DNA of 64,000 bases from Malacoraja senta. Its lineage: Eukaryota. The stretch covers positions 17,300,001 through 17,364,000 of the forward strand of contig CM075988.1 of the NCBI GenBank assembly GCA_038087875.1, in the 5' to 3' direction. Shown here one piece after another: positions 1 through 17,107 of this stretch. Numbering within the stretch: position 1 is the first letter of the stretch; each line of letters opens with the position of its first letter. Made by a program: the position numbers and the translations under genes. A model generated the notes under the pieces. It made no database searches. It worked only from the letters and a program-made list of their open reading frames with translations, and had not been told where the DNA came from.

Positions 1-749
1 AGGAGTATGTTTGGGATCATTGTCTTGCTGTAGAATGAATTGCCGGCCAATGAGTTTTGAGGCTTTTGTTTGAACTTGAGCAGATAGGATGTGTCAGTAC
101 ACTTCAGAATTCATTGTGCTACTACCATCAGCATTTGCATCATCAATGAAGATAAGTGAGCCAGTACCTTCAGCAGCCATACATGCCCAGGCCATAACAC
201 CCCCACCACCGTGTTTCACAGATGAGGTGGTATGCTTTGGATCTTGGGCAGTTCCTTCTCTCCTCCATACTTTGCTCTTGCCATCACTCTGATATAAGTT
301 AATCTTCGTCTCATCTGTCCACAAGACCTTTTTCCAGAACTTTGGTTGTTCTTTTAAGTACTTATTGGCAAACTGTAAGCTGGCCATCCTATTTTTGCAG
401 CTAACCAGTGGTTTGCATCTTGCAGTGTAGCTTCTGTATTTCTGTTCATGAAGTCTTCTGCGGACAGTGGTCATTGACAAATCCACACCTGAAGAGTATT
501 TCTGGATCTGTCAGACAGGTGTTTGGGGATTTTTCTTTATTATAGAGAGAATTCCTCTGTCATCAGCTGTGGGGGTCTTCCTTCGCTTGCCAGTCCCTTT
601 GCGATTAGTAAGCTCACCAATGCTCTTTTTCTTCTTAATGATGTTCCAAACAATTGATTTTGGGTAAGCCTAAGGTTTGGCTGATGTCTCTCACAGTTTT
701 ATTCTTGTTTCTCAGTCTCATAACGGCTTCTGACTTTCATTGGCACAAC
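1..749 (-). mobile_element. Tc1-family DNA transposon, degenerate transposase body (continues past window start)
   Basis: ORF 94..486 has Tc1 motifs VLWTDETKINL and VKHGGGGVMAWAC. Bases 1-33 read LQQDNDPKHT (second catalytic Asp) on -. Frameshifts and stops are present. Confidence 0.9.
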
Positions 750-2084
750 ATAAAAGATAAAATAGCCGCACATTTGAATAATAGTAACAGGATCGGTCCG
801 AGTCAGCATGGATTTATGCAGAGGAAATCATGCCTAACTAATCTTCTGGAATTTTTTTGAGGATGTAACTAGGAAAATTGTTAAGGGAGAGCCAGTGGAT
901 GTAGTGTATCTGGACTTTCAGAAAGCATTTGATAAGGTCCCACATAGGAGATTAGTGGGCAAAATTAAGGCTCATGCTATTCGGGATAGAGGGCTGAGAT
1001 GGATAGAAAATTGGTTGGCAGACAGGAAACAAAGAGTAGGGATTAACGGGTCCCTTTCAGAATGGCAGGCAGTGACTAGTGGGGTACCGCAAGGCTCGGT
1101 ACTGGGACCGCAGCTATTTACAATATATATTAATGATTTAGATGAAGGGACTACAAGTAACATTAGCAAATCTGCAAATGGTACAAAGCTGGGTGGCAGT
1201 GTGAACTGTGAGGAGGATGCTATGCAAATGGAGCGTGACTTGGACAGGTTGGGTGAGTGGGCAAATGCATGGCAGATTAAGTTTAATGTGGATAAATGTG
1301 AGGTTATCCACTTTGGTAGCAAAAACAGGAAGTCAGATTATTATCTAAATGGTGTCAAATTGGGAAAAGGGGAAGTACAACGGGATCTGGGGATCCTTGT
1401 TCATCAGCCAATGAAAGTAAGCATGCAGGTACAGCAGGCAGTGAAGAAAGTGAATGGCATGTTGACCTTTATAACAAGAGGAGTTGAGTATAGAAGCAAA
1501 GAGGTCCTCCTACAGTTGTAGAGGTCCCTAGTGAGACCACATCTGGAATATTGTGTGCAGTTTTGATCTCCAAATTTGAAGAAGGACTATTGAGGGAGTG
1601 CAGCGTAGGTTCACAAGATTAATTACCGGGATGGCGGGACTGTCATATGCTGAGAGAATGGAGCGGCTGGGCTTGTATACTCTGGAATTTAGGATGAGAG
1701 GGGATCTTATTGAAACATATAAGATTATTAAGGGTTTGGACACGCTTGAGGCAGGAAACATGTTCCCGATGTTGGGGGAGTCCAGAACCAGGGGCCACAG
1801 ATTAAGAATAAGAGGTAAGCCATTTAGAACGGAGATGAGGAAACCTATTTTCACACAGAGAGTTGTGAGTCTGTGGAATTCTCTGCCTCAGAGGGCGGTG
1901 GAGGCCGGTTCTCTGGAAACTTTCAAGAGAGAGCTAGATAGGGCTCTTAAAGATAGCGGAGTCAGGGGAAATGGGGAGAAGGCAGGAATGGGGTACTGAT
2001 TGTGGGTGATCAACCATGATCACATTGGATGGTGGTGCTGGCTTGAAGGGCCGTATGGCCTACTCCTGCACCTATTGTCTATTG
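750..2084 (+). mobile_element. 5'-truncated CR1-clade LINE (HER1-like), RT domain plus 3' tail, inserted into the Tc1 transposase
   Basis: ORFs 895..1521 and 1598..1999 contain YLDFQKAFDKVPH, SGVPQGSVLGP and YINDL; the FADD motif is degraded to SANG. Ends in cctactcctgcacctattgtctattg. Confidence 0.93.
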
Positions 2085-2461
2085 GCTCTTTGGTCCTCAT
2101 GTTGATAAACAGCAATAAAAGTATCCAAAGGTGATGGAAAGACTGGAGGAAAGACTAGGTGTTGAGAGGTCTCTTATACCTGCATTAAAAAGGCAATTAA
2201 ACACACCTGAGCAATTACAAACACCTGTGAAGCCATGTGTCCCAAACATTATGGTGCCCTGAAATGGGGGAACTGTGTATAAACACTGCTGTAATTTCTA
2301 CATGGTGAAACCAAAATGTATAAAAATACTTTTTAATATAATCTGACAATGTGCACTTTAACCACATGTGATTTTTTTTCTATTGCAAATCTCAAATTGT
2401 GGAGTACAGATGCAAATAAATAAATGATGGGTCTTTGTCCCAAACATTATGGAGGGCACTG
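2085..2461 (-). mobile_element. 5' end of the same Tc1 element: start codons and IR/DR-type terminal repeat
   Basis: ATG AGG ACC AAA GAG (MRTKE) at 2100-2086. Terminus reads CAGTGCCCTCCATAATGTTTGGGACA on -. The 17-bp repeat tgtcccaaacattatgg occurs at 2238-2254 and 2436-2452. Confidence 0.85.
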
Positions 2462-2780
2462 TGTAGCCATTTCTTCAAAGTCAAAAATCAAACTGGGGAT
2501 CACAGCATGTGAGCTGAAATGCTACTGTCTGAATCTCTCAGTGCGGCTCTGAAAGATTTGCCTTGTTCTTCATTGATCATAAAGTATTAAATTAATAATT
2601 TCAAAGACTCTCCAGATTGAATATTTCAGATAATCGGCTGATCCACTATAATTTGTTCACTTTATGTTTGAAGAAAATATGAGAAGAAAATTAATGTTTT
2701 ATTGTAGAATGTCTGTTAAATAATCATAATAGCATGGAAGGAGGCCATTTAACCCATCAAATCCTACTAGCTCCAGCAAA

Positions 2781-3443
2781 GGGCAGCACAGCAGCACAGT
2801 GGTAGAGCTGGTGCCTCACAGTGCCAGAGACCCGTGTTTGATCCTGACTACGGGTGCAGTCTGTGCGGAGTTAGTATGTTCCCCCTTTGACAATGTGGGT
2901 TTTCTCTGGGTGCTCTGCTTTCCTCCCGGAATCCAAAGACATGCAGGTTTATAGGTTAATTGGCTTCTGTAAATTGCCCCTAGTGTGTAGGACATAGAAC
3001 TAGTGTAGAGGTGATCGAAACGATAAAACTTTATTCATCAAAATTCATCATTAACGTCAAAAGCTTTATTGGGAAATTGATCAATGGTCAGCATGGACTT
3101 GTTGGGCCAAAGGGTCTGTTTCCACACTGTATCTCTGAACTGCACAGTGGCGCAGTGGTAGAGTTGCTGCCTTACAGGGGCAGAGACTTGGGCTCAATCC
3201 CAGGTCTCAATTACAGGTGCTGTCTGTAAGGAGTTTGTACCTTCTCTCTGTGACAGTATGGGTTTTCTCTGAGATCTTCGGTTTCCTCCAAAGATGTACA
3301 GGTCTGTAGGTTAATTGGCTTGGTATAAATGTACAATTGTCCCTAGTGTGTGTAGGATAATGTTAATGTGTGGGGATCGCTGGTCGATGTGGACTCGGTG
3401 GGCCGAAGGGCCTGTTTCTGTGCTGTAAACTAAATTAAACTAA
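2781..3443 (+). mobile_element. Two tandem tRNA-derived V-SINEs (HE1-like)
   Basis: tRNA-like head (gcagtggtagag...gatcctgac), central V-domain (gtgggttttctc...tttcctcc) and CR1-like tail gggccgaagggcctgtttc...aaactaaac. Confidence 0.8.
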
Positions 3444-3583
3444 AGCAATCCAATCAGTCTCATTGTCCCACTCCCTGAAGCCAAATTATTTTCCATTTGG
3501 CGTTTATCCAATTTCTCTTGTAGGTCCCAGTCAAAGCCAATGAATCAGTAATGGGGATGATTGAGTTTGAGCAGTTGATATTA

Positions 3584-3752
3584 CTTCTTCTTCTTATCGA
3601 GTCCACACGCAAGATTAGAAGTTGTTCAGCCAGAGCCGTACACACTTCTCGGCATCTGCATACAATGGTGTCTGTCTTGTCGCTTCTTGTGCGTGGTGGT
3701 GGAAAGATTGGTGAAAACAGGGCCGTGACGTGAACGCTCTTTCCTTGACCCC
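3584..3752 (-). mobile_element. Short non-autonomous retroelement (Ingi/Vingi-like, internally deleted) with (AAG)n tail
   Basis: Flanked by imperfect direct repeats gttgatattact (3574-3585) and gtcgatatgact (3753-3764). The 3' end reads ...WLNNF*-gactcgat-aagaagaagaag, and the 5' end is an HDV-like fold. Confidence 0.65.
3701..3752 (-). ncRNA. Candidate minimal HDV-like self-cleaving ribozyme
   Basis: GGGGUC-AA-GGAAAGA-GCG-UUCACGU-CAC-GGCCCU-G-UUUUCA-CCAA-UCUUUCC. P1 is 6 bp starting with G-U, P2 is a perfect 7 bp, P3 has 1 mismatch, L3 is 7 nt and J4/2 is CCAA. Confidence 0.7.
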
Positions 3753-4210
3753 GTCGATATGACTGGAAACAAGGGATGGGTGCATGGGAATACCACCACT
3801 TCTATGTTCCACTCTAGCTGCACACCATCCTGACCTCGAAATAAATTGCTAGTCTTTCATCCACTAAGTCTACATCATCGGAATGTCACTGTACCGAGCA
3901 AGGAACAAGAGACAATAAAGTATCATCATCACCGTCAGAAAGATCTCAAACGTCCAAGGCAATTAGGGATAATCAATAAATGCCGGCCTTGCCAGATTCT
4001 GTTTGAGCCTAAATCTCAGAGAACAGCCTATTTATAGAATGGAGCAAACGGAACTTATGAATGAAACCACAGAAGCCTCTCCCGTAAGATTAATTGCTCA
4101 AGGGAGATGCAGTGAATGAAGGATAATTACATCTAAATTGTGTTGCTTCAAATCAATCTCAGTCTTTGGGCAAGATTGACATGAGAATGTTCTGATCATT
4201 TTGACTTTGC

Positions 4211-4491
4211 TTCAGAGATATAGCGCGAAAACAGGCTCTTCGGCCCACTGGGTTCGCACCCACCCTTACACTAGTTCTATCCTACATGCTAGGGACAATT
4301 TACAGAAACCAATTAACATATAGACCTGCATGTCTTTGGCGTGTGGGAGGAAACCGGAGAACCCAGAGAAAACCCACACAGTCACAGGGAGAAGATATAT
4401 ACCCCATACAGACAGCACCCATAGTTAGGGTTGAACCCGTGTCTTTGGCACTGAGAGGCAGCAACTTTACCGCTGCGCCACCATTCCGCCC
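4211..4491 (-). mobile_element. V-SINE (HE1-like)
   Basis: Reverse complement of the same SINE family (ggaggaaaccgga...aaaacccac...actttaccgctgcgcca). Confidence 0.8.
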
Positions 4492-5464
4492 TCTGGTTGG
4501 GCAGAGCTTTGTCATTTTATGATGCTTTTTTTAAAGTTTAGCCGATGTATCCAGAATTTCGCAAGAAATCTTCCCTAATTTCTATTTGGAGGTTTGAAAG
4601 GAAGGTTTAAAGAGACTGCGGATTTGTTGATGCAGAACAGAGGAATATTCTGGTCTCATGCACTGTTTTCTGAGCATGAGGAGCTAATTTGTAAATGACC
4701 TTTCCAGCAGGCAATTAAACAAATGCACGAGCATAGTTTATGACAAGCAGATTGGGCCTGGATTTATGGATGCTGGGTTAGATAGACTCATTTGTTTTAC
4801 AGGAGGGCTCTTCATGATGCAAGGTCAAGATAACAACCTGAACTCTGGAAGTACACCATTGCTATTTTGAGAGTAATAATATGACTGTGGTTTGTATTTA
4901 CAGATGCAACATTCAGCAATTTATTCATAGTATTTAGACCTGGCCAGTTCCCTTGACTCATTGTTCTAACCATTCTGGTGCCTTTGTCTGAAAATAGTTA
5001 CCACTGGTTAGTTTCCAGTCCTGTGCATTGTGTTGGGTTTCTAACGTAGTCATCACATAATGCTGGCTTGAAGGGCCGAATGGCCTTCTCCTGCACCGAT
5101 CGTCTATCATCTTAAAGGTTTTCTCTTTTTATTTGTTTTTAACAGTTAGGGTCAGCTGTTTCAACTTGGAGCTCCAATAAGTAATGTTGTTCTCCAGATT
5201 CGCACGTGGGATGAACTGATCTTATTTTACACGGGTCAACACAAATGCATTAGGAATTTTGTCAAGGTAGCATCAAGTGGGAATTCAACTCGCCATGTTT
5301 ATAATGTATGGTTTATACATTTTTCTAAATTTGGATTGACATAGTTAGTAATTGAATGGCCATTCTCCTTGCTGTGATACCTCTGCATAGTTTGGGGCAG
5401 TTTTATCATTGGTTAATTATCAGGCAAACGATCTAGTGTTGGTGCAGAAGCCCCGGTTGGCATG

Positions 5465-5560
5465 GACACAAAATGCGGGAGTAACTCAGCGGGTCAGGCA
5501 GCATCTCTGGAGAAAAGGAATAGGTGACCTTTCGGGTCGAGACCCTTCTTCAGACTCAGT
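5465..5560 (-). mobile_element. Penelope-like element terminal fragment with hammerhead-like core
   Basis: Reads ctgaagaagggtctcgacccgaaaggtcacc...gatgctgcctgacccgctgagttactc on -. This is the same unit that follows the GIY-YIG coding fragment at 27.1-27.5 kb. Confidence 0.65.
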
Positions 5561-5623
5561 TGTGATATTCCCTTCAGAATGTCCATAAGACTGTGATGAA
5601 ACTTGCTGTTATTCTCTGGCTAA

Positions 5624-5860
5624 AGGGCCTGTCCCACTTTCACGACCTAATTCACGACCTCTGCCGAGTTTGCCCTTGACTAATACTCGCAGCATGGTCG
5701 TCACAAGGTCGTAGGAGGTCGTAGGTAGGGTGTAGGTAGGTCGTGATGCTAGTTATAGGTACTCATGGCATCAAGTACGTTGGGCATTTTTTCAACATGA
5801 TGATAAATGTCCACGAGTAAAAAAGGTTGTGAATTAGGTCGTGAAAGTGGGACAGGCCCT
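5624..5860. mobile_element. PIF/Harbinger-type MITE
   Basis: TIR agggcctgtcccactttcacgacctaattcac is mirrored at the right end; flanks are TAA and TTA. Confidence 0.8.
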
Positions 5861-5949
5861 TTACTGCAGCAAGGTTGTGAGTGTACGTAGTGACAACTAG
5901 GACTTGACTGGTAGCAATGTTGTCTCTTTCCATAATAGATTGCAGTTTT

Positions 5950-6275
5950 GAGTCCCATTTCAGAGTGATGGGAACAAGGATCTAAGTTGACGCTCTAGAA
6001 CGAGACTGTTGGAAGTGCTGCTTTTTGAGTAAGACATTAATACTGAAGACGCGTCTCAGATGAATGCGAAAAATAGTAATCTGAAGAGAGGCAGATGAGT
6101 TATTGCAGCTGTCCTCACCTATATTTATCTCTTAATCGACAGCGGCAAAAACAGATTATGTGGTCATTGTAACATTCCTGCTTTAGGGACATTGCCACAG
6201 ACTAATAGGCTGCTGAGTGTCCTCCATTCAAACAATGTCCATACATTGAAACTGCTTTAGTGTCCTTAAAAACAT
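5950..6275 (+). mobile_element. Old Deu-domain-type SINE remnant (SacSINE1-like)
   Basis: Degenerate match by eye to the family motifs atatttatc.c..aa, acagattat.tggtcatt...acatt and ggctgc. Other remnants at ~25.3-25.7, 42.6-42.8, 49.9-50.2 and 57.4-57.8 kb. Confidence 0.5.
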
Positions 6276-6511
6276 GGAAACTAGATAGATTTAAAAGATG
6301 TGTAGGAAATAACCCATTTCCTTCGCTCCATAGATGCTGCTGCACCCGCTGAGTTTCTCCAGCACTTTTGTCTACCTATTGATCAGCCATGATCACATTG
6401 AATGGCGGTGCTGGCTCAAAGAGCTGAATGGCGTACTCCTGCGTCTATTGTCCATGTCCTGCCCTTGTCTTGCCCCATCCTCCCTACTCACAACTGTTAT
6501 TTTCTCCATAG

Positions 6512-6739
<228 letters not shown>

Positions 6740-7377
6740 TAATCTTGCTTCTTCTTCCAGCAATCTAGATTGGCAACCTTCCAGCTTCCTGAGCCAAGGT
6801 GGCCTTGACAGCAGAATAACTGCAGAAACAAAATCTGAGACAAAGCAAGCAACGGTGAAAGCAGATGCCTCTTCGCCTTTGTAAAAGCCTGACAAGAAAA
6901 TGTGTGCTTGCTGCATTTGTGTGAATTTCCACTACTTTATAATTCTGCCTGATGCCATGCAGTGCAGAAATCAAATGTACTTCTGATTTCTACATGGAAA
7001 TTAAAATATGATTACAAGTAACTAAATTGGGAATGGGCTGTTGAGTTTTGTCGTTCAAAAGTCATGGCTGATATGGTATCCCATTCGTCTTTCCGGCTTT
7101 ATTCCTACATTTCTTCATTCGGTATCTAAGAAATTGTAATCTGAAATTTAGAATCAGTTAGAATCGAAAAGAAAAAGGTCAGCATATTGAAAGTAAATCT
7201 GCAACAGAGCCAACAGTGGTTTCTCATTGAATTCCCTGATGCCAATCTGCTACTGGTTCATCTAAGCCACACACCAATGCAGGTAGATGATAGCAGGGTG
7301 GCCAGTGACCAAGGTAATTGCCCTCTTGTTAATTTTCCAGGGTGAGTCTGGTTGCACCCTCCTCATATGTTTTATTT

Positions 7378-7654
7378 GTTTTCCCTCTCTCTCTTTCTCT
7401 CTCTTTCCCTCTCTTTTTCTCTCCTCTCTTTCCCTCTCCATCCATCTCTCCACTTCTCCCTCTTCCTCTTTTTCCATCTCCCTCTCTTTCACACTCCCTC
7501 TTTCTCCTTCTCCCTCTCTCTCCCTCTTTCTCTCTTTTCCCCTCTCTTTTTCTCTCCCTTCTTTCCCTCTCCCTCCCTTCCTATCTCCATTTCTCCCTCT
7601 TCCTCCCTCTCTTTCTCCCTCTCACTCTCCCTCTCTTTTACGCTCTCTCTTTCT

Positions 7655-7687
<33 letters not shown>
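7378..7687. repeat. ~310-bp C/T-rich low-complexity tract ending in (CT)n
   Basis: Almost purely pyrimidine on +. It creates the spurious L/S/P/F-rich ORFs at 7287-8170. Confidence 0.95.
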
Positions 7688-7699
7688 GGTGGTGTGTGG

Positions 7700-8250
7700 T
7701 TTCAACCTCTGTATCTTCTGCCGGATGGGAAAAGGGAGAAGGAATGTGCGGCGTGGGACAAGCCTTTGATTATGTTGTCTGCTTTTCCGAGGCAGCGTGA
7801 AGTGTTGATGGGGTCACTGGTAGGAAATCTCGTCTGTGTGACAGACTGGGCTACATCTATAACTCTCTGCAAGTTCTTGGGCAAAGCTGGTCCCAACCCA
7901 AGCTATGATGCAACCCGACTGTATGCTTTCGATGGTGCATCTGTAGAAGTTTGTAAGAGTCATTGGACACATGCTGAATTTCCTCAGTCTATTGAGGAAG
8001 TAGAGGCGTTGGTGTACCTTCTTGGCTGTTGCTTCAGTGTGGTTAGTCCACGACAGATCATTGGTTATATTAACGTCAAGGAGCTTGTAGCTCCCAACTA
8101 TTGCCATTTCAGCACCATTGATGCTGATCGGGGCATGTACTACCCCTCGCTTCCTAAAGTTGATATGTAGCTCCTTCGTCTTGCTGACATTGGGGGAGAG
8201 GTTATTGCTCTGTCACCATGTTACTAAGTTCTTTATCTACTTCCTGTATT
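7700..8250 (-). mobile_element. Rex1/Babar LINE 3' fragment
   Basis: ORF 7814..8107 contains DLSWTNHTEATAKKVHQRLYFLNRLRKF and NFYRCTIESI; downstream LFPSGRRY. Confidence 0.85.
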
Positions 8251-8955
8251 CCAGAGGCTATCAGATCTCAATGGTGCAGGTGGAGTTGCCCTGATCTAAC
8301 TGTGTGACAGAACTGACCAGAGGGCTGAAAGCCCCTTGCCTATTCCTGGTATTGTTTGCTTTCACCCTGAAGCACAGAAGATAACAGGACACATTGGTAT
8401 TTCCGTGAATCGCTCAGTACTGGAGATAGTGCACATCCTGTTCTATATCAGGAGAAATACTCCAGGGCTGCCTACGTCGGCTGTTCTGTACAGGGTTAGA
8501 TGCTGTCTTACCGGACAATGCATGTGGAATGACAATCATTTATTCTGCTCTGGTCAACAAGACAATTCAGGGTCACAATTCCTGGTCAATGTGTCATGGT
8601 TCCTGCACAGGTGTCTTGTGAGGGGCATAATGGCTTCACTCCTCTCCCTTTGAGCCATGTACCACGAGAGTCTAGACTCACAAACAACATAGCCAAAATG
8701 GGCAAGGCAGTGGAGGACAATGCCATCTGTTAGATCAATACTAGTCATATCACAGTGATCAGAAGGTTCTGTGATTGAGAGAACGAGAGAAAAAGAGAGA
8801 CTGCTGAATATGGAAAACCAAAATTATGCTGTAGTTGTAAGTGAGAAGCACAAATATCAGCCATTAACCTTAAGGAAACAGTAATGTTGTTAAGATAAGA
8901 AAGGCATAATATTATACCCTTGACCGTCCTTTGATCTCTCCCTACCATGTTGTAG

Positions 8956-9411
<456 letters not shown>

Positions 9412-14371: not shown

Positions 14372-16540
14372 TGAATAATAATAATAATATATTTTATTGT
14401 CATTGCACGTCAGTGCAACGAGATTTAGTATGCAGCTCCACCGATGTACAAGAAAAGTAAAATAAATAAATAAGCAAGCTGAGTGACGTGACCATCCGAG
14501 GGAGACTGTCCAGGGGGGGTGGGTGGGGGGGCACTCAGCAGGGCCGGTTCAGAGCCGCTATAGCTCTTGGAATAAAGCTGTTTCTGAGTCTGGAGGTTCG
14601 GGCGTAGAAGGCCTTGTAACGTCTGCCGGAGGGAAGTAGTTCAAACAGTCCGTTACAAGGGTGTGATGAGTCCTTATGGATGCTGACGGCCTTCCTGAGG
14701 CACCGTGTGTGGTAGATGCCCTCCAAGGCTGGTCCCAATGATCCTCTGCGCTCTGTGGACGACGCGCTGAAGAGCTCTCCTCTCTGCCTCCGTGCAGCTG
14801 AGATACCACACAGAGATGCCATACGTTAATATGCTCTCTGTGGTGCAGCGATAGAACGTTGTCAGCAGCTGTTGGGGCAGACCAGTCTTTTTTAATGTCC
14901 TCAGGAAGAACAGTCTTTGCTGTGCCTTCTTGACCAGCGCAGCGGTGTTGGTGGACCATGTGAGGTCCTCTGAAATGCGAGTGCCCAGAAACTAAAAGCT
15001 GGACATTCTCTCCACACTTTCCCCGTAAATGGAGATTGGGGCGTATTCTCCATTATGGGACCTCCTGAAGTCAATAATCAGCTCCTTGGTCTTGGAGGTG
15101 TTTAGTGACAAGTTGTTATGAGCGCACCAGTCCGCCAGGTTCTGCATCTCCGCTCTGTATTTTGTTTCATCACCGTTGGTGATCAGCCCAATCACTGTTG
15201 TGTCGTCTGCAAACTTCACGATGGTGTTGGTGTCGAATGCAGGGACACAGTCGTGAGTGAAGAGGGAGTAGAGCATGGGGCTTAGTACACAGCCCTGTGG
15301 TGTGCCGGTGCTCAGGGTGATAGTGGAGGACAGGTGCGGGCCCAGTCTCACTGCCTGCGGTCGCTCCGTCAGAAAGTTCAGGATCCAATCGCATATCGGC
15401 GAGCTGAGGCCTAGATGGTGGAGTTTGGTGGTGAGCTTGGTGGGGATGACCGTATTGAATGCAGAGCTATAGTCAATGAAGAGCATCCTCACATACGTGC
15501 CCTGTCTGTCCAGGTGAGTCAGGACAGTGTGAAGAGCCAGGGAGATGGCATCCTCTGTTGATCTATTTGCCCTGTATGCAAATTGATGGAAGTCCAGTGA
15601 GGCAGGGATGCTGGATTTGATATGGGAGAGGACCAGCCTTTCGAAACACTTCATTAGGATTGGTGTTAGGGCAACCGGGCGGTTGTCGTTCAGGTTGGTG
15701 ACTTTGGACTTTTTTGGCACCGGCACTATGGGGACTGTTGCCAGAGATAGAGACAGATTGAAGATTCTCGTGAATACCTCCGCCAGCTGTACAGCACAGT
15801 CTTTTAGTACCCTTCCCTGGACTCTATCCGGGCCTGCAGCCTTGCGTGGATTGATCCTACGCAGAGCGCACTGTACCTCCTGGGTGCTCAGTGTTAAGGC
15901 CTGTCCCTCCGCCATGGCCAGGGTTATTCCACTCCTGGTGGTTGCCAGTTTCGAACCGGGCAAAGAAGGTGTTTAGTTCGTTGGCCAGTGTGATATCACC
16001 GTGGGGGCAGGCGGGGCTGCTCTTGTAGTCGGTGATGTCCCTGACACCCTGCCACATGCCTCTGGTGTCCGCGGTGTTGAAGTGGTCTTCTACCCTTTGC
16101 CTGTGGATGTCTTTGGCCTTTTTTATGCCTCTGTTCAAGTTCGACCTGGCCGCACTGTAAGCAGAAGTGTCCCTGGATTTAAAGGCATTGTTGCGTGCCC
16201 TTAGCATATCCTGAACCTCCTTGTTCATCCAGGGTTTCCGGTTTGGGAACATCTTTATTTGCTTGTCCACTGTGACAGTCTCCACACAGCAGTTGATGTA
16301 GGAGAGCACAGTGGATGTGTACTCCTCCAAGTCTACCTCTGTACCACTGGTAGCCTGTTGTGCAAACAGGTCCCAGTCGGTGCGATCAAAGCAGTCCTGG
16401 AGTTGTAGGGTGGCGTCCTCGGGCCATATTTTGACCGTCCTTATTGCAGGTTTGGTCTTGTGGATGAGGGGTTTGTATGCAGGCAGTATAAACAGTGAGA
16501 GGTGATCGGATTGTCCCAGGGATGGGCGGGGGAGAGCTCT
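14372..16540 (-). mobile_element. Rex1/Babar LINE, 5'-truncated ~2.2 kb, frameshifted ORF2
   Basis: ORFs 15857..16570, 14992..15963 and 14558..14959 carry GQSDH (EN end), [28 protein letters not shown] and KFADDTT. (ATT)n tail at ~14372-14388. Confidence 0.93.
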
Positions 16541-16879
16541 GAAGGATAGGCCATTGAGATGAGGAGACATTACATCACTAAGGGAGTTCAGAACTATAGT
16601 AATTTTCTACCCCAATATACTGTGTTTCAGTTTGTTCATTCAAAGCAGATAACAGTGTTCTCTATGTTTAAGAGAACCAAGCGATGTGGCGAATAGCAGG
16701 AAGATGGCACTTGAGTAGAAGATCAGGCTCGAAGGGCCGAATGGCCTACTCCTGCACCTATTTTCTATGTATCAGCCATCCATGGCGAAGCAGCCTCAGA
16801 GTAGACGTCTTAGCTTTTGTTTCTTATGTTCGATGAAATGCTTTGGGGTGAACTCAACTCCTCGTGCGAATTCCATTGA

Positions 16880-17107
<228 letters not shown>

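Follow-up and report, generated by a model that had tools for sequence, protein, structure and literature searches.

Ribozymes resembling that of hepatitis delta virus (HDV) have been described at the 5' ends of RTE, R2, R4, baggins and L1Tc elements (PMC6765202, PMC3774820), and the use of such ribozymes by some short interspersed elements (SINEs) is covered in reviews. The conserved core of the R2 ribozyme is CCUCCUCGUGG (PMC5035012). RTE elements are approximately 3.2 kb in length and have just one open reading frame (ORF) for an apurinic/apyrimidinic (AP) endonuclease and a reverse transcriptase, no ORF1, a very short 3' untranslated region (UTR) that ends in a simple repeat, target-site duplications (TSDs) and no target specificity (PMC2887409). 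HDV-like ribozymes that lack helix P4 are known from sequences of microbiomes and phages, their origin and role being described as largely open (PMC10879173). The present analysis concerns 64,000 nt of Malacoraja senta DNA (GCA_038087875.1, CM075988.1, positions 17,300,001-17,364,000), referred to as the window, whose numbering is used throughout. Within an intron of the gene BACE1, the - strand of this window carries a short retroelement, at 3584-3752, whose first 52 nt have the features of a P4-less HDV-like ribozyme.

The data presented below argue, with a probability of about 0.85, that this element belongs to a family, SINE1, of deleted derivatives of an RTE-like long interspersed element (LINE), in which a 52-nt P4-less ribozyme head would free the RNA and the LINE reverse transcriptase would copy it. 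The evidence consists of the demonstrated SINE1 family and its TSDs, 5' ends situated at the predicted cleavage site, a conserved core, compensated changes in helices P1 and P2, a protein-coding relative with the same type of head and terminus, and a remnant of that relative's ORF. A second short family, SINE2, and the LINE itself, represented chiefly by the copy L109, reside in the same genome.

The window element and the SINE1 family

An earlier, sequence-only reading had set out a nested pairing order for positions 3752-3701 of the - strand. This was matched exactly on re-reading, including the G-U pair that opens P1, the perfect P2, the single mismatch in P3 and the 7-nt loop L3. The imperfect 12-bp direct repeat that it had placed around the element was borne out, and both the ORF-terminus remnant, in frame as ...CVRLWLNNF-stop on the - strand, and the (AAG)n tail, at 3596-3584, are present. 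The parts of the window copy are as follows.

3701..3752, - strand: P4-less HDV-like (CPEB3-type) ribozyme motif, 52 nt, assigned from the match to RF00622, covariation and an invariant J4/2 C
3752-3747/3724-3719, - strand: P1, GGGGTC/GGCCCT, six pairs of which the first is G-U
3744-3738/3707-3701, - strand: P2, GGAAAGA/TCTTTCC, seven Watson-Crick pairs
3737-3735/3727-3725, - strand: P3, GCG/CAC, with one C-A mismatch at 3726
3726, - strand: copy-specific change in P3, A instead of the family G, which breaks the middle pair of this 3-bp helix
3734-3728, - strand: L3, 7 nt
3718, - strand: J1/4 G directly after P1
3717-3712, - strand: 6-nt linker in the place of P4
3711-3708, - strand: J4/2 CCAA, with the putative catalytic C at 3711
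3752, - strand: predicted cut 5' of G3752 (G1), which is the exact 5' end of the element
3753..3764, - strand: 5' TSD AGTCATATCGAC, identical at 10/12 positions to 3585-3574
3574..3585, - strand: 3' TSD AGTAATATCAAC, overlapping the final AG of the tail
3657..3700, - strand: linker region, starting ACCACCA and containing the word GCGACAAG, common with SINE2; site of subfamily indels
3615..3656, - strand: C-terminal coding remnant of an RTE-like LINE ORF (...DAEKCVRLWLNNF), with a TAA stop at 3617-3615
3584..3614, - strand: short 3' UTR ending GGACTCGATAAG, and the (AAG)n tail; a like terminus occurs in SINE2, in L109 and in the metagenome LINE L126

The window element is a copy of a dispersed, non-autonomous retroelement of the type without long terminal repeats (non-LTR), 166 bp in length, which was named SINE1; a non-autonomous element of about 170 bp with TSDs and an (AAG)n tail had been postulated from the single copy. 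In a first look at the genome, 2367 SINE1 candidates were obtained. Forty were scored, and the 39 other than the window copy were 92-98% identical. An exact SINE1 28-mer occurs 1108 times genome-wide, as opposed to 0 times for the reversed control. A majority sequence of 166 bp was derived, to which 30 fetched loci, the window copy included, are 96.4-99.4% identical.

A common 5' boundary was observed, within a few bases, in all 30 fetched copies, and the ends coincide with the predicted cleavage G, so that the related copies with a shared 5' boundary foreseen in the sequence-only reading were indeed found. The upstream flanks of 85 listed copies are mutually unrelated. Of 73 distinct copies, 59 begin GGGGTC, and 64 are flanked by a TSD of 9-17 bp. 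In 33 of these 64 it directly adjoins G1; in 13 its offset is +1 (cases that are ambiguous owing to a target G), in 7 it is -1, in 2 it is -2 and in the other 9 it is +2 to +4. The boundary is thus no more than 1 nt from G1 in 53 of the 64 TSD-bearing copies.

Contigs from four public sequencing runs provided additional data on the limits of the element. Their depth is zero outside 3584-3752; in runs X1, X6 and X20, hundreds to thousands of them have break points at 3752 and at 3584-3589, and 395 contigs (X20), 23 (X1) and 1 (X2) continue into unlike sequence at 3752. Most of the contig depth in X1, X6 and X20 (three of the four runs) has T>C at + strand position 3726, and most genome copies agree. 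The P3 mismatch had been explained as decay from CGC; the family majority has an intact GCG/CGC, with G at 3726 in most copies, as that explanation supposes. In run X6, two contigs from organism C pass at window position 3705 from the 3' strand of P2 into differing, partly similar upstream sequence, and are possibly another head variant in that organism. With its broken P3 pair and its position antisense in a BACE1 intron, the decayed SINE1 copy at 3584-3752 (- strand) is most likely an inert insertion.

SINE1 is not uniform. A subfamily lacking TTC near the stop codon is older (86-96% identical), and further variants have small indels at positions 60-95. Master-level differences between subfamilies, namely linker position 39, the indels at 60-95 and the TTC deletion near the stop, are located outside the paired core. 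Seven matches to the TTC-less form, on both strands, are situated approximately 40 kb apart, the last some 170 kb further on, in one contig (G000:C4152:1086523-1421324); this set resembles one large duplicated array more than a series of independent insertions. One locus, L063, was considered as a longer form of SINE1 and was rejected, being a SINE1 copy split by a nested insertion of about 425 bp (1038-1462). That insertion has inverted ends and no long ORF, and resembles a miniature inverted-repeat transposable element.

SINE2, the RTE-like LINE and the origin of SINE1

Relatives were sought through the P3-L3 core, one base of P1 being changed. Of the 65 matches obtained, as against 1 in the control, most were mutated SINE1 copies; the search also exposed SINE2 and the RTE-like LINE. 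SINE2 is approximately 190 bp in length, with 1913 first-look candidates and 592 exact 30-mers. Its head reads GGCCCC AT AGCAGAA GCG TCCACGT CGC GGGGCT, followed by a short P4, CTAA and TTCTGCT; its 3' end is GGACACGAAAAG(AAG)n, and TSDs are present.

The LINE is represented by only 19 candidates in the genome. Of 11 of its 5' ends examined, 9 start with GGGGATC and have unrelated flanks. L109 spans approximately 3.14 kb between TSDs of 12 bp (GACAGAACAAAA), with the ribozyme motif starting at the first base. The head consists of P1 GGGGATC/GATCCCT, P2 GGTAGAA/TTCTACC, the same P3-L3, an 8-bp P4 and J4/2 CGAA. A single ORF of 940 amino acids begins about 30 nt after the ribozyme and contains Exo_endo_phos and RVT_1 domains, and the 3' end is ...GACACGAAAAG(AAG)n.

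Two of the LINE 5' ends, L116 (G000:C8:937568-937850) and L118 (G000:C4:35489621-35489850), begin with several tandem units of 26 nt, each extending from the P1 GATC, by way of P2, P3 and L3, as far as the P3 CGC. GATC is present in both strands of P1, which makes slippage or template switching at these heads seem likely. A further locus, L102, downstream of a SINE2 copy, was rejected as a LINE: no LINE ORF was found on the strand of the element, and the opposite strand has only an unrelated integrase/RNase H ORF.

The terminus GAC(A/T)CGA(A/T)AAG(AAG)n is common to SINE1, SINE2 and the LINE. SINE2 matches the L109 terminus at 20/21 positions, and SINE1 differs from it at 2/14. The sequence-only reading had proposed a search for a full-length partner LINE sharing both ends. 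A LINE whose ribozyme head is homologous and whose 3' terminus is similar does occur in the genome, but the direct parent of SINE1 was not among the elements recovered.

As to the origin of the SINE1 body, a BLASTN comparison with L109 aligns nothing beyond positions 2-36, in the head, and the final 17 nt. Frame 0 of SINE1 ends ...DAEKCVQLWLNNF-stop, and several LINE relatives end CVQLWLNHI-stop. In a single BLASTP comparison, SINE1 residues 33-44 aligned with residues 929-940 of a 941-amino-acid relative (9/12 identical, 12/12 positive, E 7e-5), in register with the stop codon, which agrees with the earlier suggestion that this segment is the remnant of an ORF terminus. When the 45-amino-acid SINE1 peptide was compared with an alignment of LINE proteins using hhalign, the match was confined to 10 C-terminal columns, with a probability of 2.7, and the BLASTP alignment is the one relied upon. 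SINE1 is an internally deleted derivative composed of the head, the end of the ORF (the stop codon and approximately 13 codons before it), a short 3' UTR and the tail, and its parent is a relative of L109, not L109 itself.

Pattern searches for the parent gave the following results. The 3' 27-mer with non-ribozyme sequence upstream had 136 matches, all of them length variants or 5' truncations of SINE1 with differing break points. The 25-mer of the tail with a changed ORF end had 36, all from the older TTC-less subfamily. The 3' half of the ribozyme with a continuation other than ACCACC had 0 matches in the genome.

The sequence-only reading had assigned the element to a Vingi/Ingi origin. That assignment is not supported, because the autonomous relative is RTE-like by architecture: L109 measures about 3.14 kb, encodes Exo_endo_phos and RVT_1 in one ORF, terminates in (AAG)n and is flanked by a 12-bp TSD. 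A search of protein clusters with the LINE ORF returned generic reverse transcriptase clusters only, with no clade indicated, and the names of its homologues were uninformative in this respect.

Beyond this genome, the LINE protein has relatives at 46-63% identity, by name from amphioxus, sea urchins, a starfish, teleosts, Anolis, insects and crustaceans; many, with lengths of 940-1050 amino acids, are located on contigs of approximately 3.0-3.4 kb. Among metagenome contigs, 80 related loci were collected; 24 were scanned with Rfam and all 80 with R1, a model built in this study. The loci L126, L127 and L128 (51% protein identity) match RF00622 at 55.6 bits, some 150 nt upstream of where the ORF match lies. 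P1 and P2 of L126 are identical to the printed Rfam consensus, and its first 36 nt differ from it only in J1/2 and one base of L3; at the 3' end it reads ...GACACGAA(TCA)n, after which a TSD is present. The R1 scan added the heads of L139 and L164, upstream of their ORFs. In L139, P1 and P2 are entirely different and fully paired, and L164 is decayed. Two more distant loci (approximately 40% protein identity), L147 at 303-369 and L183 at 1089-1160, have matches to RF02682 (gathering score 44) of 41.6 and 33.1 bits, respectively, upstream of the ORF. The type of HDV-like ribozyme appears to vary within this group of LINEs.

These termini also bear on the possibility that SINE1 is mobilised by a different LINE, the like 3' ends reflecting shared ancestry and not present recognition. 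In favour of this are the absence, in the genome pattern searches, of a parent with a CVQLWLN-type ORF end and the 2/14 terminal differences from L109, and RF00622 matches of differing lengths do exist elsewhere in the genome. A terminus consisting of GACACGAA plus a triplet repeat is, however, retained between LINEs that are only 51% identical in protein, which suggests that the enzymes of this group make use of this terminus, and SINE2 agrees with L109 at all but one of the 21 positions compared. Mobilisation by another LINE is accordingly regarded as the less probable explanation, though one with some substance.

The ribozyme head

The window copy matches RF00622, the CPEB3 ribozyme model, at 21.8 bits (E 0.011 in a 2.5-kb scan), a weak match below the gathering score of 35 bits. 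Five SINE1 copies with an intact P3 score 30.4-33.1 bits, and the deficit is attributed to the missing P4. SINE2 copies score 33.7-42.4 bits, with four of five at 35 or above (35.7-42.4), and the LINE copies L109 and L093 score 63.8 and 57.1 bits. Over the whole genome, 39 of 51 RF00622 matches have at least 35 bits; none was found in 14 control genomes. RF00622 is the sole ribozyme family matched in the Rfam scans of SINE1 loci, the remaining rows being sub-threshold microRNA, cis-regulatory, small nucleolar RNA and small RNA matches elsewhere in the scanned loci.

Two observations were made in the course of these scans. Long hairpin-forming repeats near SINE1 copies (L019 986-1146, L009 337-459 and L026 1899-1962) give matches, on either strand, to unrelated hairpin families of Rfam that fall short of the gathering scores, and are probably inverted-repeat elements rather than the RNAs matched. 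In addition, RF00622 matches of 47-60 bits with lengths of 70-89 nt, unlike those of SINE1, SINE2 and the LINE, are situated, for example, at C19:3349247-3349335, C1:59793712-59793800, C1:380487059-380487137, C470:16289-16362 and C10:9303888-9303957 (all G000). These may be further ribozyme-headed families or the missing SINE parents.

A loose descriptor (P1 of 6 bp, P2 of 7 bp, P3 of 3 bp with no more than one mismatch, a 7-nt L3 and a linker of 5-15 nt with a C) has one match in the 64-kb window, which is this motif; 30 dinucleotide shuffles gave 1.27 matches on average (range 0-4). The motif is considered real on account of its context, namely the shared 5' boundary, the TSDs, the edges of contig depth and the compensatory pairing in related families, and not of its pairing alone. 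The chance-level pairing speaks for an alternative in which SINE1 would be an ordinary RNA polymerase III SINE, its head derived from tRNA, 5S or 7SL and its HDV-like pairing a coincidence. That reading is contradicted by CPEB3-model matches in three families, by covariation that backs the fold and by the presence of the same head on a protein-coding LINE; moreover, no tRNA, 5S or 7SL match was found in Rfam scans in or next to the window element (E up to 10) or in eight other copies (E up to 1). It is considered highly improbable.

The alignment in which covariation was assessed comprised 17 sequences; the six lineages represented were SINE1, SINE2, the LINE, and the metagenome LINEs L126, L139 and L164. 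P1 played no part in the model behind this alignment. Of 272 cells, 96.3% pair, as compared with 38-50% when the partners are slid; for P1 and P2 the values are 96-98% versus 38-50%. Both sides have changed in 11 of the 16 pairs (P1 4/6, P2 6/7 and P3 1/3), which bears out the compensatory pairing between families anticipated for P1, P2 and P3, and none of 500 shuffles reached any of five covariation measures. MAFFT alignments of 14 and 15 sequences gave 96.5-96.8% of cells paired, versus 40-54% when slid, with double changes in 7/17 pairs.

The putative catalytic C proposed at 3711, in J4/2, is invariant in all 17 aligned ribozymes across the six lineages. Also invariant in 17/17 are T19, C21, A22, C23, G24 and T25 of L3, together with C42, A44 and A45. 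The G after P1 and the Cs of L3 occur in all families; these bases being invariant, the putative P1.1 pairing shows no variation. Considered at the level of sequence, the results support the assignment of the first 52 nt to an HDV-like motif with its predicted cleavage site at the 5' end of the family.

The head could instead be a dead vestige of the LINE ribozyme, the 5' end of SINE1 being set by an internal promoter or by initiation at G1. In favour of this, the SINE1 heads lack P4 and fall short of the RF00622 threshold, at 30-33 bits, and a dual promoter/ribozyme head (Pr77/L1TcRz) is known in L1Tc and NARTc (PMC3383444). On the other hand, P1, P2, P3, L3 and the J4/2 C are retained in every SINE1 subfamily majority, whereas the body has accumulated indels. 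Compensated changes separate the P1 and P2 helices of SINE1 from their counterparts in the LINE and in SINE2, implying selection for pairing after the families split. P4-less HDV-like ribozymes are, in addition, a recognised class (PMC10879173), and more than 1000 copies have been made with this head. A vestigial head is accordingly thought unlikely.

The preferred reading, that of a ribozyme-headed derivative dependent on an RTE-like LINE, may be set out as follows. A source copy of SINE1 would be transcribed by read-through within a longer transcript. Judging from its anatomy, the CPEB3-type HDV-like ribozyme would fold into a nested double pseudoknot and cut 5' of G1, and this cut would generate the exact 5' end of the SINE1 RNA. 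The terminal GAC(A/T)CGA(A/T)AAG(AAG)n would be recognised, as the shared termini suggest, by the reverse transcriptase of the RTE-like LINE, with the 3' UTR and tail serving as the proposed recognition and priming end. Target-primed reverse transcription would then insert a copy of the RNA at a staggered nick, giving rise to TSDs of 9-17 bp.

Several points weigh against this reading. Taken by itself, the window copy's pairing does not exceed chance level. The SINE1 heads are below the RF00622 gathering score, with 0 of 8 further copies reaching 35 bits (best 33.1). The 17-sequence alignment was fitted to P2 and P3 of model R1. Variation within SINE1 looks like the decay of dead copies and displays no covariation, so that the fold is supported by between-family events, which are few but clean. 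L109, the sole full LINE copy read, has an in-frame TGA, beyond which its relatives read on through a Cys/His motif. Finally, a direct parent LINE with the same 3' 27-mer or 3' half of the ribozyme was not found in the genome pattern searches.

Host gene and comparison with known systems

Two exons within the window, listed here, identify the host gene through matches to Beta-secretase 1 structures.

8956..9090, + strand: BACE1 exon, the nearest detected downstream of the element; Beta-secretase 1 (501 residues) residues 236-280, E 1.8e-20; Asp match 8956-9072
16898..17065, + strand: BACE1 exon; Beta-secretase 1 residues 364-416, E 5.6e-30; Asp match 16850-17065

The exon at 8956..9090 is identical to the human protein at 33/45 positions, from which the host is taken to be non-mammalian, and the nearest upstream exon detected, of the Asp family, is situated 32.7 kb before the window. 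No Asp exon was found among 66 short + strand ORFs in window positions 1-8955, nor among 80 long ORFs. The element had been placed in BACE1 intron 3, in antisense orientation. The gene, the intronic position and the orientation (the exons being on the + strand) were upheld, but the number 3 was not confirmed, since no exon was found in positions 1-8955 and positions 124-154 of the Asp profile are unaccounted for. Remains of other mobile elements are located near BACE1 at 14561-16606 (- strand), 838-1518 (+), 97-510 (-) and 7817-8212 (-); they comprise ORFs with RVT_1, a fragment of Tc1/mariner type (HTH_Tnp_Tc3_2) and a pair of ORFs with matches to ALKBH8_N.

The proposed mechanism is not new, ribozyme-headed non-LTR elements being already known. 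What is notable is the occurrence of two high-copy, SINE-sized vertebrate families in which a ribozyme of predicted self-cleaving type is the only head, a route to short mobile RNAs without an RNA polymerase III promoter, and of a natural 52-nt P4-less form in a eukaryote. The main novelty is CPEB3-type sequence outside mammals, at up to 64 bits against a gathering score of 35, such sequence having so far been reported from mammals only; the statement on the CPEB3 ribozyme in PMC8233481 stands in contrast to it. In the abstracts and passages searched, among them those of PMC10919898, PMC8233481, PMC8256844, PMC6765202, PMC7761336 and a 2026 bioRxiv preprint, no CPEB3-type ribozyme in retroelements or in non-mammals was found; Webb 2009, Ruminski 2011 and Webb and Luptak 2011 may have priority.

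It is conceivable that the mammalian CPEB3 ribozyme is an exapted head of RTE type, from a LINE or a short derivative, that entered the intron of CPEB3 in an early mammal, and not a mammalian invention. The elements described here and those from unrelated metagenome contigs would then be its outgroups, and the P4-less SINE1 head would be a natural minimal eukaryotic version of the same lineage. This origin is regarded as about as likely as not. Were the homology to hold, it would provide an origin for the CPEB3 ribozyme, outgroups for ancestral reconstruction and a set of natural P1, P2 and P4 variants for testing.

The elements of this genome resemble RTE, R2, R4, baggins and L1Tc, as described in the papers cited above, in that the ribozyme comes first in the element, where a cut 5' of G1 would free the RNA from the upstream co-transcript, and in having no evident promoter of their own and an ORF shortly after the ribozyme. 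They differ from these in having a vertebrate host and a ribozyme of CPEB3 type rather than HDV/R2 type. With NARTc of Trypanosoma cruzi and the R2 short internally deleted elements (SIDEs) of Drosophila, SINE1 and SINE2 share a short, internally deleted form that keeps the parent's 5' ribozyme and 3' end and, as proposed here, would use its enzyme (PMC3383444, PMC3414825). SIDEs are specific for ribosomal DNA, whereas SINE1 and SINE2 are distributed genome-wide with TSDs, in hundreds to thousands of copies of 166-190 bp, and SINE1 is entirely without P4. The double pseudoknot without a P4 domain is a feature in common with minimal metagenome HDV-like ribozymes and phage theta ribozymes (PMC10879173), from which SINE1 is distinguished by its eukaryotic retroelement context.

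The closest likeness in sequence is to the CPEB3 ribozyme itself. At 63.8 bits, the L109 head has approximately 44 identical positions in the printed alignment with RF00622, which take in the block P3-L3-P3, CUGUCA where P4 starts and UGCGAAUUCU at the end. The mammalian ribozyme is a single conserved intronic locus, whereas the ribozymes described here are heads of multicopy mobile elements situated outside the CPEB3 gene, with P1, P2 and P4 that vary from family to family.

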